Below are positions 4,868-39,770 of a stretch of DNA of 64,000 nucleotides, piece after piece. The notes beneath the pieces were generated by a model. The model was not told the origin of the DNA. It worked only from the letters and a program-made list of their open reading frames with translations, and ran no database searches. The stretch comes from a virus: positions 1 through 64,000 of IMG/VR virus record IMGVR_UViG_3300034691_000040; one strand, 5' to 3'. The translations under genes and the position numbers were made by a program. Within the stretch, counting starts at the first letter, position 1. Each line of letters starts with the position of its first letter.

Positions 4868-4894
4868 TTAATTTAGTTACAGTCACTCATTATT
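4868..4894 (+). promoter_or_regulatory. Putative early promoter (27-nt motif, divergent copy)
   Basis: TTAATTTAGTTACAGTCACTCATTATT matches 20/27 to the copy at 26721. Confidence 0.5.
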
Positions 4895-8380: not shown

Positions 8381-8746
8381 TTATTTGTCATCTTCAGGAA
8401 TATCGACCATGCTGATCGTTTTGTTCTTATGGTCGTGAGAACAATCGCCCAGATAGATGAGGTTACCTTCACGGATGAAGAAGTGGCAGGTAAAAGGCCG
8501 TGGTGTGATAACCCCGCCTGCCATCAGGATATCGCGTTCCTCGTCCGTGATACGTCCAACGCCACTAAGTAACAGGCTAGGTGAGAAGGTCGGTTCCGTT
8601 ACACTGCCGTTCCAACCCCAGAAGGCTTGCTTATTCTTTTCATGTTCCAAGTACACGTTGTGCATCATCCTGCAGCCGGGGCAGAAGAAGCTCAATGTGT
8701 ACTCGTTTACCTGCTGCAAGATCGGCGAAAGCTGTCTGATTTCCAT
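8381..8746 (-). CDS. DUF6527-like Cys/His-rich protein
   Basis: FFCPGC..MH, WGWNGSVTEPTFSPSLL, CHFFIREG...YLGDCSH; start moved to the ATG at 8746 (GGGGA RBS). Confidence 0.7.
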   Translation of the reverse strand: MEIRQLSPILQQVNEYTLSFFCPGCRMMHNVYLEHEKNKQAFWGWNGSVTEPTFSPSLLLSGVGRITDEERDILMAGGVITPRPFTCHFFIREGNLIYLGDCSHDHKNKTISMVDIPEDDK

Positions 8747-8775
8747 TTGATATGTCCCCACCGGAGCTAAGTGAA

Positions 8776-9582
8776 ATGGATAAGAAGGATGAAGTTAAAA
8801 GACTGCTGGGTCTTGCGGTCAGAGATAAAGACTTAGGTCCGATGGTCCTCAAGAAGAATTTGAATGATTTGGTTTTGATTGAGCATGATGGGAAGAGTGT
8901 TGGTTTCGCTATCCCTCGTTTTGAAAAAGATGGTCATTGGCGTACAGGTCCTATCTTTATTGAACCTGGGTATCGTAAGAAAGGTATTGCCTCAGCATGG
9001 ATCACTGAGTTCTTTAAAGGTAAAAAAGGAAGAGCTTGGATCGAACCCCATAACCATGCCAGTCAAGGCGCGTTCTCGAAAGCTGGGTTTCATAAAACTA
9101 GTAAGGAGCTTAATACTTCCGGTGAGCATTTTCTTGAATACTCAGTTGAGTCATCAGCTACATCTGCCGAACACAGATTGATCGACTTAGCGCTCAAAGA
9201 TCCACGCTTGGGTCCTGCTGCGGTAACCACAGATCCTGATCAACTGGTCTGGGTGTATGATGACAACAAAAAGAAGGTGGGTTTCTTCACACCTAAGCAA
9301 GAACCAGATGGCCGGTACAGAACCGGTACCATCTTTATCGAACCTTCAGAACGCGGGAAAGGCTACGGCTCGAACGCTGTGAATTCGTTCTTTAATGGCG
9401 CTACCACACCGGGTCGTGCTTGGATCGAACCTAGCAATATCCCGAGTCAAACCATCTTTAAAAAGGCAGGGTTTTATAAGTCAGGTCGTCACACAATGTC
9501 GAAGACAACACCCAGACTGTTTGAAGAATGGATTAACAAACCAGAACCTCCATTAGTATCCCGACCAGTGCTTGGTTGGTAA
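8776..9582 (+). CDS. Tandem (two-domain) GNAT acetyltransferase
   Basis: Two homologous halves, each with IFIEP..R.KG (acetyl-CoA motif A) and RAWIEP.N..SQ..F.KAGF; GGAG RBS supports ATG 8776. Confidence 0.85.
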   Translation: MDKKDEVKRLLGLAVRDKDLGPMVLKKNLNDLVLIEHDGKSVGFAIPRFEKDGHWRTGPIFIEPGYRKKGIASAWITEFFKGKKGRAWIEPHNHASQGAFSKAGFHKTSKELNTSGEHFLEYSVESSATSAEHRLIDLALKDPRLGPAAVTTDPDQLVWVYDDNKKKVGFFTPKQEPDGRYRTGTIFIEPSERGKGYGSNAVNSFFNGATTPGRAWIEPSNIPSQTIFKKAGFYKSGRHTMSKTTPRLFEEWINKPEPPLVSRPVLGW

Positions 9583-9599
9583 AAAGATACATTATATGG

Positions 9600-9840
9600 G
9601 TAATGAATACAACCTGTTCATCTTGCTCGCTGGACAGGTTACTTGTGGTCGGGACGTTCCCTTCGACCTGGGTCATTGTCGTTCCTGGTCGTGTGACAGT
9701 GACTGCTGAGTATCACTTAGCCTATAAATCACTTAGTGTGGGAACGGAGTGCTTTATAGAGTGTGTGGTGCGTTGTGGTGCTGAAGGTGGGTTGGGGGAG
9801 TGAAAACATATCGGCAGGGCGCAAGCCCTGCCTTTATGCC
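9600..9840 (+). ncRNA. Candidate structured non-coding RNA A
   Basis: Five consecutive hairpins, a GU-rich tail and a terminator hairpin; TACATTAT upstream; strand inferred. Confidence 0.5.
9813..9840 (+). terminator. Terminator-like hairpin (TATG family)
   Basis: GGCAGGGC-GCAA-GCCCTGCC-TTTATGCC. Confidence 0.7.
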
Positions 9841-9853
9841 GTCTGTATTCGAT

Positions 9854-9880
9854 TTAACTTTTTTATAGTCACACATCACG
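9854..9880 (+). promoter_or_regulatory. Putative early promoter (27-nt motif)
   Basis: TTAACTTTTTTATAGTCACACATCACG, 26/27 identical to 26721-26747; both head + strand accessory operons. Confidence 0.75.
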
Positions 9881-9920
9881 ATCGTACTAAACCTATACCC
9901 CTACCCTAAAAGGATTTATC

Positions 9921-10295
9921 ATGTTTAACAAAAACGTTTTGACGCTGGTTGGATTAGGTGTCGCTGGTGCGATTATTGGCGGTCTGATCGGTCGCCATCT
10001 CGGCAAAACCATCGGTATGCTGCAAAAGGATATCAGCCTTCTAGACCGTCGTATCATCGAGCTTGAAGTCAAAGCCCTGGGTTCGCCGCCAATGGAAACC
10101 GTTAAGCAGCGAGAAGCATACGCTGCTATTGTCGTCCAGCTTCTTTCCGATAGGGTCCGTCAGTACCAAAGGGTTTTGCCAACTGGCGGTAACGAGAAGA
10201 TCCACACTCTGCGCACGCAGTTTATTGACGGTGAAATTACCACCGACGCATTTACAAACGGCCTTCTGTTTGACATTTACAGCAGCGCAAAATAA
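9921..10295 (+). CDS. Hypothetical protein with N-terminal transmembrane/Gly-zipper segment
   Basis: VLTLVGLGVAGAIIGGLIG hydrophobic segment followed by a coiled-coil. Confidence 0.7.
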   Translation: MFNKNVLTLVGLGVAGAIIGGLIGRHLGKTIGMLQKDISLLDRRIIELEVKALGSPPMETVKQREAYAAIVVQLLSDRVRQYQRVLPTGGNEKIHTLRTQFIDGEITTDAFTNGLLFDIYSSAK

Positions 10296-11894: not shown

Positions 11895-12211
11895 CCACAC
11901 CCACGGTTCGCCGTGGGTGACCTCTACGCATCTCTTTTTTTTGTAGTGGCTAATTAATACTACTATGTATTACGAGTTCTTTTACAACCTAAAACTTTAA
12001 GCTAATCTTCACAGTAAGTCGTTTGTGCGACAGCTCCCTGTTGAAAGGCACTCTTACAGACCTCAGTCTGACTTAGGCTTTGTTCCTCGAACATAGTCGG
12101 CTTTCCAAACGATGCAATATACAACGTAAAGCATTCAAAGGACTCTTTGTGCTGACAACGCTTTCAATTGGTGCGCGCGTTTGGTCTGACCTAACACCCT
12201 TACAGGCAATT

Positions 12212-12237
12212 GGCTGACTTCGGTCAGCCTTTATGCT
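12212..12237 (+). terminator. Terminator-like hairpin (TATG family)
   Basis: GGCTGAC-TTCG-GTCAGCC-TTTATGC. Confidence 0.7.
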
Positions 12238-12257
12238 GCATTCTGTAATAGGTTGAT

Positions 12258-12287
12258 TTGTAAGAAGTTACTTCCCGTATCTATAAT
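12258..12287 (+). promoter_or_regulatory. Sigma70-like promoter
   Basis: TTGTAA-N18-TATAAT upstream of an ORF-free structured segment. Confidence 0.45.
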
Positions 12288-12293
12288 CTGAAT

Positions 12294-12515
12294 AGAAATT
12301 TCTCTCCAGGGCAGTTGTAGAGAATCTTCGGTTACCTAATCCTGTAACACCGAAGCGGGTATAGGTGAGATAAGCGTTCGGGCGTACGCTGGTTTCTAAA
12401 GGATAGTTTGACGCTTAGCGTTTAACCGTCAGCCACTTATGGGCGTAAGTGGCTGGTGGATGTGCGTTGGGGGTGGTGTAGAAAACAAGCACCCTTCACG
12501 GGGTGCTTTTTATGC
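12294..12515 (+). ncRNA. Candidate structured non-coding RNA B
   Basis: Several hairpins including CAGCCACTTA/TAAGTGGCTG, a GU-rich tail and a terminator at 12487-12515; no ORF of note. Confidence 0.5.
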
Positions 12516-12528
12516 CGTAATGAGATGG

Positions 12529-12532
12529 TATG
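12529..12532 (+). promoter_or_regulatory. Possible late promoter core (TATG)
   Basis: GGTATG context also at 359-362; TATG also at 34415 upstream of the capsid gene; TATG is the remembered phiKZ late-promoter core. The motif is short, so weak on its own. Confidence 0.35.
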
Positions 12533-12577
12533 TAGTCGCAGTGACTATATCCTACTTCTTAAGAAGGTATATGTATC

Positions 12578-13102
12578 ATGGCAAAGGTAAACCTCACACT
12601 CAGCGCCTCCGCTAACGTCCTGGCCCTGATCAATGCCGCCAACCCAGCGCTGAACGCAACCGATACCCAAGTTACTCTGGGTACTCCTTCGGTTGCTGCC
12701 GGTACTGGCGGCCGTAACACCAGCCTCATCGTTACCGCCGTCTCCAACCAAGGCTTCAGCGGCGAGCAGATCTTTGCTTACACCCGTCAAGCCCTGGCTT
12801 CCGGCGCCGCAATCGCCACTGCAAAAGCAGTGCCGTTCGCCATCGCTCCAGGCGACACCAACGCTCAGATTCTGACCAAAGCAGCCACCGCTCTGGGTCT
12901 GCTGGAATCGGAACTGACCCTCGCCAACATCGTTCAGCCTGTGAACGAAACCACCCCAGGTTCGGCCGATGTCGTGGCCAACGTGGCTAGCCTGCTGTAC
13001 ACCGGCACCTACGCCGCCACCCTGACCGTACCGGATGCAGACGTCCCTTTGGATGAAGCTGCGACCGTGACCGATCTGAGCGGTTTCGACGCAGAGGCCT
13101 AA
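12578..13102 (+). CDS. Tail-fibre/decoration family paralog (short class)
   Basis: FAYTRQAL core and C-terminal PLDEAATVTDLSGFD motif; strongly C-ending codons like the capsid gene. Confidence 0.75.
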   Translation: MAKVNLTLSASANVLALINAANPALNATDTQVTLGTPSVAAGTGGRNTSLIVTAVSNQGFSGEQIFAYTRQALASGAAIATAKAVPFAIAPGDTNAQILTKAATALGLLESELTLANIVQPVNETTPGSADVVANVASLLYTGTYAATLTVPDADVPLDEAATVTDLSGFDAEA

Positions 13103-13110
13103 GGGCTAAA

Positions 13111-13140
13111 CATATAGCCGGGAGCAATCCCGGCTATATG
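13111..13140. terminator. Hairpin (CATA...TATG family)
   Basis: Perfect 13-bp stem CATATAGCCGGGA-GCAA-TCCCGGCTATATG. Confidence 0.8.
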
Positions 13141-13215
13141 CCGCAAAGATGAAAGTGACAGTTTACATTTGACGCTTATTAGATAATACCACCCCAACCG
13201 CCCTGGAGTATTATC

Positions 13216-26720: not shown

Positions 26721-26747
26721 TTAACTTTTTTACAGTCACACATCACG
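26721..26747 (+). promoter_or_regulatory. Putative early promoter (27-nt motif)
   Basis: TTAACTTTTTTACAGTCACACATCACG, 26/27 identical to 9854-9880. Confidence 0.75.
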
Positions 26748-36820: not shown

Positions 36821-36850
36821 CTGAGCAATCAGTGAGCGGTAGGTAGTCAA

Positions 36851-36881
36851 CATAGAGCCCGGCGCAATGCCGGGCTCTATG
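36851..36881. terminator. Hairpin (CATA...TATG family) after the capsid gene
   Basis: Perfect 13-bp stem CATAGAGCCCGGC / GCCGGGCTCTATG, no T-run. Confidence 0.75.
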
Positions 36882-36903
36882 CCGTAACTATTCATTTTAT
36901 TGC

Positions 36904-36999: not shown

Positions 37000-38115
37000 A
37001 TGACGTCAAAAGATCATCGGGTAAGTGTGTTGGATACTTGTTCCTATTCGCCGCGTTATGGGGGGTTCGCCTTAACGCACGATTCCAGCAACACTTATTC
37101 GAAGACCGTAAGGTACGTTAATAATACCAAACAAGAAGTCGACGTTAAAGAACGTAGTGGTGTGGTCGTGGCGCTTGCGCCGAATCCGTACCAGCAAACG
37201 CGTGTTGAATCAATCGAGATTGAGGTTGAGTGGCGCATGACCAATCAGTGTTTCATGGAAACAGCTGATCGGTTAGCGGAAGGTCATCCAGGTGACCCAC
37301 TACTTAAGGTCGTGATTGAAGCGTTTGATAACCGCAATAAGCGTGGTGGTAAAGAGACTGAGACATCTTCTTTGGCCCTAAGCATTAGCTTTCCGCTCGA
37401 AGACTTGCGCAAGGCAGGTGGTTCAGTTTATCTTGAAGAGTTAGACATTACTTTAGGCATGCCTATTATGCCAGGTAGTCGAAAAATCAACCATCCGTTC
37501 GAGCCGCGTGAACGTGTGAAGAAATCTTTCGCAAGTTCGGTTCCCTTCGTGACGAATGAAACATTCTTGTTCTCCATGAAGGCAATTAATAATGATCAAG
37601 TGGCTAAAAACCACGATCGTTTTATGCTGCTTGGTAGTCAGGTGTACCGAGTACCGGTGGAGCGAGACCCGCACCATCAGAACGGTATCCACATCGTCAG
37701 ACGGCGCAATGCTGATAGTGATCCTCCAGACGTAGGTACTGTAGTCGAGGAACACATGACGTTTGAGGAGGCTGATAAACGATTTAGGCTTTACGATACT
37801 GTTGAAATGGCCCGCAAGATGGGCGATCCTGAAGTGCACTTTAAGCTCGAACTTGCAGAGATGGGTCGAGCGCAAAAGATCGAAGAGATTGCACAGAAAC
37901 GAGTGGATGCTGAAGATGCTGCTGTAATCACTGCGCGCCGGTTAGATCTGGAACGAGAGAGGTTAGAGATGGCAACGGCAAAAGCCCGTGAAGACTTAGC
38001 CAAAGACAGGGTGAGGAACTTTGGCGACTGGGTAGGTCTGTGTGGCAAGTTCTTATTGGTGGCATTAGGGGCGCTTACATCGCTTGCGAAGTTGAGTACC
38101 TTAAAACCAGTTTAA
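37000..38115 (+). CDS. Conserved hypothetical protein with C-terminal coiled-coil and hydrophobic tail
   Basis: 371-aa ORF between capsid and RNAP genes. Confidence 0.7.
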   Translation: MTSKDHRVSVLDTCSYSPRYGGFALTHDSSNTYSKTVRYVNNTKQEVDVKERSGVVVALAPNPYQQTRVESIEIEVEWRMTNQCFMETADRLAEGHPGDPLLKVVIEAFDNRNKRGGKETETSSLALSISFPLEDLRKAGGSVYLEELDITLGMPIMPGSRKINHPFEPRERVKKSFASSVPFVTNETFLFSMKAINNDQVAKNHDRFMLLGSQVYRVPVERDPHHQNGIHIVRRRNADSDPPDVGTVVEEHMTFEEADKRFRLYDTVEMARKMGDPEVHFKLELAEMGRAQKIEEIAQKRVDAEDAAVITARRLDLERERLEMATAKAREDLAKDRVRNFGDWVGLCGKFLLVALGALTSLAKLSTLKPV

Positions 38116-38126
38116 ATAGGCCCAGC

Positions 38127-39770
38127 ATGGATATTGAGTGGTTCAACGATTTACAAGCGGACAGGCCCAAGTTCAACCAAGACATCATCGATGGTATTGC
38201 GTATAAGGAACTCAAGAAGGCTGAAGACCGCGTAGTCAATGTCATTCATTGCGCGGAACCTAGCTTTCCTGATAAGTTCGAGTTCTTGGGTGCTTCTGTT
38301 TGTGGACCACGGGAAACGTTTCAAGTCATCGCCGGCGGGTTAACCAAATCCAACCGGATGCCACCTACCGTGGATCTGGCCATCACCGATGCTAAGCTGG
38401 TAAAGTTCCAGTTCGCGTTTGATGACCGGGAATTATATCCTCGGTATTTCTACGTGCCCTATAGTCGCCTCGGTGGCTTCATGGGCATTGCAGGCAACCA
38501 GTTCCTGATCAGTGCAGTCTTGGCAGACCCATGCTTTAGCGTGGGCACTGACCATGTCTTCCTGCGTGTGAACCGGGCGCCGATGACGTTCAAGCTTGTT
38601 GATACGACCATGCGTATTGATGGCGTGTTAGCCAGTCGGGACATCCCGTACAGTTGGCTTCACCACAAAGGGGCCTCTAACAAGACCTCTGAAAGTGATG
38701 TATTGCAGTTAGGGCATGTTGTCACCACGTTACCGCATTATTTGTTCTGCAAGTACGGCCTGCGCGAAGCTTTCAAGAAGTTCTGCAAAGTCGACGTCAT
38801 CATTCAGCACGAAGACGAACCTGTAGATACAAAAGAATACGTGGTGTTCTCAAGCCAGAAGGTAAACAAGCCACGCACTCTGAAAATGAAGGCTGACTTG
38901 TACAAACTGATAGCATCGCCCATGGTGCTGTTGGTGCCTCGTAAGAAACAGTCGGAGTTGGTGAATCAGTTTGCAGCTGCGTTCTTCTACATCGTCGACC
39001 ACTTCCCAGAAGCACGGGAGGTTGAAGACCTGATGGGGGATGAGCTGTGGAAAGTATGGCTGGGGTATGTGTTGTTCGGCGATCAGCTGGGACGGCACAA
39101 GTTGGTTGAGAACGTTGAGAACCACCTTGTCAGAGGTATTGACGAGTATGTGGATCATGACTGTCGGCAGATGCTGTACGATGAGGAAAACCTCATCATC
39201 AACGACATCTACGAGCTGTTCATCTACTTGATCAACAACATCAAGGGGATGATTCAGAACAGTGAGAAAGATATCGCTAGCATGTTCGGTAAGCGCTTAA
39301 CTGTCGCGCCGTATGTGCTACGCGATATCACCAGTCAGGTCATGCGGTGTTTGTTTGAAATCACAAACAACCGCAAGAAGGTGTTGAAGTTCGATGACTA
39401 TAACAAGATCCTTGGTAAGTTCTTCAGACACACTGAAGTGTTCAATCTGAGAAAGACCAATGAGAAACGGTTCATGTCGTCTGTATCGACGCCTGGAGAT
39501 AACCTTCTCTTCAAACTCACAACCAAGATTGTTAAGCAAGCCCACACCTCAGGTAGCAAGAAGGCGCCTAGCGTTAACGTGAATGATCCTTCAAGCTGGC
39601 TGCACTATTCGTCTCTTGAGGCGGGTAACTACGGCATGCTACCTAAGCACGGACCCCTTGCAAACAATACCATCAGCCCAACCGTCAAACTGGATGAGAA
39701 CAACACCATCGTCGAGAAAGAACACCTCAAAGCTACAAACGCCTACGTTAACTACGTTATTCGCCGTTAA
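38127..39770 (+). CDS. Non-virion RNA polymerase beta subunit, N-terminal part (phiKZ gp123-like)
   Basis: 547 aa from ATG 38127; YFYVPY...IAGNQFLISAVLAD and WLHYSSLEAG...LP motifs; synteny after the capsid gene. Confidence 0.8.
   Translation: MDIEWFNDLQADRPKFNQDIIDGIAYKELKKAEDRVVNVIHCAEPSFPDKFEFLGASVCGPRETFQVIAGGLTKSNRMPPTVDLAITDAKLVKFQFAFDDRELYPRYFYVPYSRLGGFMGIAGNQFLISAVLADPCFSVGTDHVFLRVNRAPMTFKLVDTTMRIDGVLASRDIPYSWLHHKGASNKTSESDVLQLGHVVTTLPHYLFCKYGLREAFKKFCKVDVIIQHEDEPVDTKEYVVFSSQKVNKPRTLKMKADLYKLIASPMVLLVPRKKQSELVNQFAAAFFYIVDHFPEAREVEDLMGDELWKVWLGYVLFGDQLGRHKLVENVENHLVRGIDEYVDHDCRQMLYDEENLIINDIYELFIYLINNIKGMIQNSEKDIASMFGKRLTVAPYVLRDITSQVMRCLFEITNNRKKVLKFDDYNKILGKFFRHTEVFNLRKTNEKRFMSSVSTPGDNLLFKLTTKIVKQAHTSGSKKAPSVNVNDPSSWLHYSSLEAGNYGMLPKHGPLANNTISPTVKLDENNTIVEKEHLKATNAYVNYVIRR

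Follow-up and report, generated by a model that had tools for sequence, protein, structure and literature searches.

A Structured RNA Predicted from Covariation Downstream of a Tandem-GNAT Gene in Uncultured phiKZ-like Jumbo Phages

Introduction

The loop pairing of phi29 pRNA, an RNA of the small phi29-like podoviruses, is intermolecular and short. The non-coding RNAs that phiKZ-like jumbo phages carry have hardly been explored; only a handful of transcript-mapped small RNA (sRNA) candidates exists, none with an assigned function. In the chimalliviruses phiKZ and 201phi2-1, such candidates have been mapped by ONT-cappable-seq (PMC11512511, PMC10914365). It has also been reported that the intergenic regions of IMG/VR viruses hold 8,495 unnamed candidate structured RNAs (csRNAs), with motifs of 29–151 nt (mean 67), which were not functionally described (PMC10690425). 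The locus considered here lies in IMG/VR virus record IMGVR_UViG_3300034691_000040, of which positions 1 to 64,000 were analysed; this stretch, the first 64 kb of a 126.8-kb phage fragment (G+C 50%; estimated completeness 51%), is called the window. A preliminary description of the window, made from the letters alone, had proposed a non-coding RNA at 9600–9840; this interval falls into a 338-nt spacer that has a tandem-GNAT acetyltransferase gene on one side and a gene for a 124-amino-acid protein (9921–10295) on the other. Comparison with homologous loci confirms that this spacer holds a real, uncatalogued structured-RNA gene on the + strand. The reading tentatively favoured is that of a non-coding RNA gene of ~240 nt at 9598–9838 (+), predicted to give a discrete transcript that acts through its compact shape.

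Hairpin Fold and Covariation

Copies of the RNA were gathered via GNAT protein homologs and pattern scans of viral and metagenome contigs, and 11 distinct RNA sequences in four lineages were obtained, all of them from uncultured phiKZ-like jumbo phages. Clade A comprises the window, L004, L009, L005 and L006-8; clade B comprises L012, L045 and L068/L136; clade C comprises L010, L035, L015 and L014, with a GNAT identity to that of the window of only 44%; and clade D is represented by L125, a low-coverage contig. Covariation among these copies shows that an RNA-level fold is under selection, consisting of a 5′ hairpin, H1, followed by the abutting hairpins H2–H5 (Table 1), of which H3, H4 and H5 are contiguous, without spacers; the conserved core spans ~165 nt (9611–9763). 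The five consecutive hairpins proposed earlier are all present at their positions, with compensatory changes in relatives. In a covariance-model alignment of 10 distinct sequences, 98.2% of cells pair and double-sided changes occur in 28 of 56 pairs, while slid-partner controls give 35–42% paired cells and 4–7 double-changed pairs, and none of 500 shuffles reached the observed covariation; covariation with homologous loci was among the checks that the preliminary description had suggested. The covariation is also found on the MAFFT alignment, which was not fitted to the model; for clades A and B, RNAalifold predicts 56 pairs from the MAFFT alignment, and 14 of these carry compensatory changes.

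The hairpins differ in how they vary. H1 has double-sided changes in 7 of 9 pairs, and 100% of its cells pair. H2 is the most conserved sequence of the element, with 100% of cells pairing, a G-C to A-U change in clade B and a near-identical sequence in clade C; it had been drawn as GGTCG/CGACC with an inner GGA/TCC, and while the hairpin itself stands, the inner pairing gives way to the 7-bp stem and 8-nt loop that the covariation supports. H3 has four pairs with double-sided changes (96.9% of cells pair), H4 pairs in 100% of cells with A-U to G-C and G·U to A-U changes, and H5 has double-sided changes in 12 of 13 pairs. The earlier H4, CTGAGT/ACTTAG at 9706–9720, is present and extends to GCTGAGT/ACTTAGC at 9705–9721. 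In addition, a 4-bp helix between UACU (9640–9643) and AGUG (9760–9763) is kept in clades A and B and may close a five-way junction, although weakly. Another closing helix, between leader and tail, was predicted on one alignment and rejected, being broken in clade A.

The RNA is assigned to the + strand because the frequent G·U pairs work on one strand only; the opposite strand would have A·C mismatches at these places. Single-sequence folding, the RNAfold test proposed earlier, is better than that of shuffles, with z-scores of −2.96 (+ strand) and −3.83 (− strand); these values are modest, suggestive and not decisive, and the case is carried by the comparative evidence. Next to no credence is given to the possibility that there is no RNA and that the region is a DNA-level element (an origin, a packaging site or a recombination site) or encodes the 75-amino-acid product of an open reading frame (ORF) at 9576–9803. 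The minus-strand z-score and a G-rich non-template stretch that could favour R-loops would suit it, but the many G·U pairs would not, and the cumulative GC skew has no turning point near the locus that would indicate an origin or R-loop. The ORF has no Pfam or PHROG match and is broken by stop codons and 1-nt indels in clades B and C; it is not conserved and appears not to be a protein-coding gene. The earlier call of a non-coding + strand RNA instead of this ORF is accordingly borne out by G·U pairs, covariation and the broken frame.

Known RNA families do not account for the element. Rfam 15 gives no match at the gathering threshold in the whole window, so that the RNA is uncatalogued there; an Infernal/Rfam search had been recommended in the preliminary description. 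With the E-value cut-off relaxed to 10, two chance matches below threshold, PhotoRC-I (13.9 bits, threshold 45) and GlsR5, are all that is found at 9300–10100. ARAGORN finds 0 tRNA or tmRNA genes in the window.

The Loop–Loop Contact

Across the lineages, a 7-bp pairing between the loops of H2 and H5 is shown by covariation. The loops of clade A, H2 CGUUCCC and H5 GGGAACG, correspond to CAUUCCC and GGGAGUG in clade B, CAUUCCC and GGGAAUG in clade D, and CGCUCUC and GAGAGCG in clade C, and the contact thus covaries in three steps. Cognate loops keep the 7-bp pairing (6 bp in L005 and L006), whereas non-cognate loops reach only 3–5 bp in 30 of the 42 combinations between lineages; shuffled loops match the observed pairing length in 1.4–6% of trials per lineage. 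When the contact is scored as a pseudoknot on the MAFFT alignment (A10), 100% of cells pair. The H3 loop or the H1 loop could also contact the H5 loop, but both contacts would be shorter and less consistent than that of H2 with H5 and were set aside.

The covariation is compatible with pairing in cis or in trans. A self-assembling RNA, in which H2 and H5 loops pair between molecules to give dimers, rings or cages in the manner of phi29 pRNA or the ROOL/GOLLD nanocages, would explain the paired loops equally well; by geometry, a straight kissing stack of 7 + 7 + 13 bp seems long for the short H2–H5 linkers, and ornate phage-associated RNAs are documented to have conserved kissing loops between molecules (PMC12286853). 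Intramolecular loop–loop contacts across a junction are, however, common in riboswitch aptamers, the bulges of H5 could bend the stem, and ROOL and GOLLD are far larger than this RNA, which leaves self-assembly distinctly improbable. The same low weight is placed on the proposal that a homo-oligomer (a ring, filament or small cage) acts in cells infected by a nucleus-forming jumbo phage, for instance as a scaffold or sponge; if true, the RNA would be a compact relative, in principle and not by descent, of phi29 pRNA and the ROOL/GOLLD nanocages.

Distribution and Conservation

Within the material searched, homology shows that the RNA occurs in a single clade of uncultured phiKZ-like jumbo phages and not outside it. 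Covariance model R1, for which the MAFFT alignment of clades A and B served as input, finds the RNA of clade C (E ~1e-13) and that of clade D (E 3e-45), while model R2 has no match in phiKZ, pPa_SNUABM_DT01, Xoo-sp14, LucasX or FLC9; no DNA match to the locus was found among cultured phages. A pattern scan of 185,579 species genomes for cellular homologs gave two chance matches only, both rejected by the covariance model, and the metagenome pattern scan gave 103 matches, mostly GC-rich coding false positives. The covariance models place a single copy of the RNA in the 127-kb record of the window, one in each of two genomes that are near-complete (95% and 100%), and one in a further record with 75% completeness.

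The close relative L004, a 237-kb IMG/VR contig, aligns to the window over 5.2 kb at 86.6% identity, and the longest perfectly identical run in this alignment, 281 nt (window 9562–9842), coincides with the candidate RNA. The window and L009 differ by four substitutions in the RNA, and pairing is kept in 4 of 4. The core hairpins and loops are conserved more tightly than the adjoining coding sequence; this RNA, which is restricted to an uncultured, soil-type clade, exceeds the surrounding protein genes in conservation.

The phage itself is placed as a deep-branching, uncultured relative of the phiKZ group because its major capsid protein is 23–35% identical to those of phiKZ-like jumbo phages and because an ORF at 38040–39770 has 37% identity to an annotated beta/beta′ subunit of the phiKZ-type non-virion RNA polymerase (nvRNAP).

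Table 1. Positions of the RNA and of its flanking features in the window
Feature	Position	Strand	Description
Tandem-GNAT acetyltransferase gene	8752–9582	+	Pfam GNAT families match twice
Promoter-like block	9582–9598	+	AAAGATACATTATATG; conserved in alignments A2–A5; putative start G9598
H1	9611–9640	+	Arms AACCTGTTCA/TGGACAGGTT; 9–10-bp stem; C/U-rich loop UCUUGCUCGC
H2	9647–9668	+	7-bp stem GGUCGGG/UUCGACC; 8-nt loop ACGUUCCC (9654–9661)
Kissing half, H2 loop	9655–9661	+	CGUUCCC; 7 bp with 9740–9746
H3	9671–9704	+	13-bp stem; apical loop CUGGUC
H4	9705–9721	+	Stem GCUGAGU/ACUUAGC; loop AUC
H5	9722–9759	+	Long stem; G-rich loop UAGUGUGGGAACGG
Kissing half, H5 loop	9740–9746	+	GGGAACG
G/U-rich tail	9760–9806	+	First 4 nt AGUG, may pair with UACU 9640–9643
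Terminator	9807–9838	+	CATA, GGCAGGGC-GCAA-GCCCUGCC hairpin (9813–9832), UUUAUG(CCG); pattern spans 9807–9841
Promoter-like repeat	9854–9878	+	TTAACTTTTTTATAGTCACACATCA; serves the downstream 124-amino-acid gene; outer boundary, outside the RNA

Upstream Boundary and the GNAT Gene

It has been reported that the late promoter of the phiKZ nvRNAP is TATG, with +1 at the G, and that TATG, though required, does not suffice for a late promoter in phiKZ (PMC4666361). The preliminary description had noted a resemblance to the promoter core at 9588; a conserved block is indeed found there, but its universal part is not specifically TACATTAT: it is TATATG (9593–9598), which is retained in every full-length copy of the RNA. 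TATG/CATA is the second most depleted tetranucleotide of the genome after CTAG, with an observed/expected ratio of 0.56, and many of the remaining copies sit inside CATA-hairpin-TATGCYG terminators. By analogy with phiKZ, the conserved TATATG is inferred to act as an nvRNAP-type promoter with +1 at G9598.

No sigma70 promoter was found on the + strand of the locus. On the minus strand, a sigma70-like TGAACA-18-TATAAT lies at 9591–9620 (10 of 12 matches), directed into the 3′ end of the GNAT gene and containing the reverse complement of the conserved ATTATA; as a promoter it was rejected, its -35 box not being conserved in other lineages. A genome scan for a shared TTKGTAA...TTAC promoter family gave no clear family outcome.

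The RNA stands in a close relation to the GNAT gene, which is its upstream neighbour in every homolog with the upstream flank present in the sequence; for the GNAT homologs P0001–P0005, the RNA is next downstream in 5 of 5. Wherever this flank is present, in all four lineages, the RNA starts 7–10 nt past the GNAT stop codon, and the GNAT of L136, although single-domain, still abuts it. The GNAT stop codon is not separated from the element by a terminator. The sole cultured match to the GNAT protein is a single-domain gene in Burkholderia phage FLC9, without spacer and without RNA, and the RNA is likewise missing next to more distant GNAT-like genes that have no spacer. These observations suit a cis-acting 3′ untranslated region (UTR) of the GNAT mRNA that is never a separate RNA and whose fold protects, localises or times the acetyltransferase message; within this reading, the conserved A/U-rich AUUAUAUG could be a processing site of RNase E type and not a promoter. 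A mere stabiliser, however, needs neither a covarying tertiary contact nor loop sequences fixed across lineages, the conserved motif fits the start motif of the phage polymerase, and gene order is conserved throughout the region, which makes adjacency weak evidence. A 3′ UTR with no separate RNA is therefore considered unlikely, while still deserving serious attention.

Two further observations concern the GNAT gene. The single-domain GNAT of L136 (3498–3953) has 151 amino acids and is 71% identical to the C-terminal half of the tandem protein of the window, with the RNA unchanged; because of this match to the C-terminal half, either the tandem form would be a lineage-specific duplication or the single-domain form a loss. 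A gene of the DUF6527/BubE family lies antisense at 8381–8761 (− strand), sharing 10 nt at its 5′ end with the start of the GNAT gene, and its position is kept in the relatives L009, L010, L125 and L136.

The G/U-Rich Tail

The G/U-rich stretch noted earlier past H5 is present: 9751–9800 contains 25 G, 16 T, 6 A and 3 C, and the tail is predicted to be unpaired in lineages A, B and D. It is also the least conserved part of the RNA. In L005–L008, a free-standing GIY-YIG homing-endonuclease gene lies directly past the RNA core (L005–L006 4120–4707; L008 1690–2265; L007 ends short of the site); the insertion brings a new tail and terminator, and the RNA core survives the swap. Since the gene is inserted directly past a highly conserved core, the arrangement suggests that the conserved RNA gene or its flank is a target of GIY-YIG homing.

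The tail bears on whether the RNA is a base-pairing sRNA, acting either with its G/U-rich tail on CA-rich leaders or with the C/U-rich H1–H3 loops on purine-rich ribosome-binding sites of phage or host mRNAs, and so controlling translation. The unpaired, G/U-rich state of the tail in three lineages and the UCC/UUCC in the H1–H3 loops, complementary to Shine-Dalgarno-like sequences, would be expected of such an sRNA. However, a role of the tail as functional seed is unlikely because the tail is replaced in L005–L008 and different in clade C. The motif that the preliminary description saw in common between this tail and a neighbouring candidate, non-coding RNA B, is not kept in the relatives of B. 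The H2 and H5 loops are occupied by each other, and for duplexes with 129 phage translation-initiation regions the energies do not improve on those for random genome windows (H1 loop −8.1 vs −8.5, H3 loop −10.3 vs −10.5 and tail −24.0 vs −26.4 kcal/mol for initiation regions and random windows, respectively). Action by base pairing on such targets is thus rated improbable.

Terminator and Downstream Boundary

The hairpin at 9813 is present as described and belongs to the standard terminator type of the phage, a CATA-GC-rich hairpin-TATGCYG pattern with little or no U-tract, of which there are ~25 copies in the 127-kb record (for example, 13096–13143, 36840–36884 and 9807–9841); its stem shows compensatory changes among relatives. 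It had been called the RNA's own terminator; a terminator it is, but it also ends the GNAT transcription unit and is hence shared. In L125 (3545–3600), the terminator hairpin is precisely absent with both flanks kept, which is either natural variation or an assembly artefact.

The 25-nt promoter-like repeat TTAACTTTTTTAYAGTCACACATCA is found at 9854–9878, 26721–26745 and 100564–100588 (G000), with degenerate copies at 4868 and 53416; it lies 40–50 nt upstream of start codons and is probably the early-type promoter of the phage. The 124-amino-acid protein downstream has no match among cultured phages or IMG/VR viral contigs.

The order of structured domain, linker, terminator and genes is that of a transcriptional riboswitch, and the multi-helix junction with a loop–loop contact recalls large aptamers. 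A riboswitch-like attenuator, in which a ligand-bound multi-helix domain sets read-through of the 9813 terminator into the downstream small-membrane-protein genes, is nevertheless very improbable. An antiterminator cannot form, because the terminator arm has no complementary segment; in L005–L008 the terminator and the linker have been replaced as a whole, and in L125 the terminator is absent. Downstream, the genes vary from lineage to lineage and have a promoter-like motif of their own; the helix that would close the junction is weak, and Rfam gives no riboswitch match.

Proposed Mode of Action

The favoured reading, a ~240-nt non-coding RNA gene, can be put together as follows. The phage nvRNAP would start at the G of TATATG, or the RNA would also be carried as the 3′ end of the GNAT message; the transcript would run from ~G9598 to ~9838 and end at the phage's standard terminator. 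Its compact three-dimensional shape would let it bind a phage or host protein, as platform or decoy, or associate with itself into a particle. Shape-based action is preferred over antisense action because the hairpins, loops and tertiary contact are held fixed while the G/U-rich tail is freely replaced, and simple antisense regulation would accordingly seem improbable.

Several points weigh against this reading. Action through shape is only weakly suggested by what is and is not conserved; the junction-closing helix has merely 4 bp and is not kept in clade C; the TATG rule is carried over by analogy, because the phage is only distantly related to phiKZ (capsid 23–35%); and the conserved ATTATA is a perfect TATAAT on the minus strand. 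With no terminator between the GNAT stop and the element, the element would also be carried on the 3′ end of the GNAT message and would be at least also its 3′ UTR.

If the ~240-nt RNA gene is as described, it would have start and stop signals of the phage polymerase itself on its two sides, the start signal being a putative one. The RNA is small enough to synthesise, and it offers a route to asking about the role of structured RNAs in phages whose transcription takes place within a protein-walled nucleus. The covariance model, moreover, lets annotators label a recurring "empty" gap.

Neighbouring Non-Coding Blocks

At 11895–12577, two further conserved non-coding blocks are found, 11900–12150 and 12257–12522, the latter being candidate RNA B. 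Each block is ~75% identical in clade-B phages, where the two lie ~750 nt apart. Candidate B shows compensatory changes and has a conserved TTTGTAA-N17-CTATAAT upstream. The idea that B is a paralog of the kissing-loop RNA was rejected: the local alignment score is 25 against a shuffle maximum of 27, the covariance model finds one copy only, and the common tail motif is not kept in the relatives of B.

Comparison with Known Systems

The sRNAs of phiKZ and 201phi2-1 resemble the RNA described here in being short non-coding units of phiKZ-like jumbo phages, with a start site followed by a close terminator, and one of them is conserved across genera. They differ in that they come with expression data, whereas the present RNA is known from sequence alone, and in that no homology connects them with it, model R2 finding none in phiKZ. 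Furthermore, 8 of the 11 candidates of 201phi2-1, including the conserved one, are derived from 5′ UTRs, while the RNA here follows a gene and has a covarying tertiary contact.

The phi29 pRNA (Rfam RF00044) is a phage RNA of comparable size, and it too has two complementary loops that covary among related phages; the Rfam pRNA model, however, does not match the RNA here, which also has no link to packaging genes. The lysine and cobalamin riboswitch aptamers likewise have helices arranged around a junction and held by a loop–loop contact. Unlike them, the RNA here has no Rfam match, no expression platform and a weak closing helix, and it lies past a gene and is followed by a separate promoter-like motif.

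ROOL, GOLLD and OLE (PMC12286853) are similar in being orphan, highly structured and often phage-carried RNAs with conserved kissing loops, but they are several-fold larger and form RNA-only multimers, while the RNA here has ~240 nt and no Rfam match. Finally, the csRNA candidates of IMG/VR (PMC10690425) share with it both the data source and the type of evidence, namely covariation within intergenic regions of phages; some of the present RNA may be listed among these 8,495 candidates.
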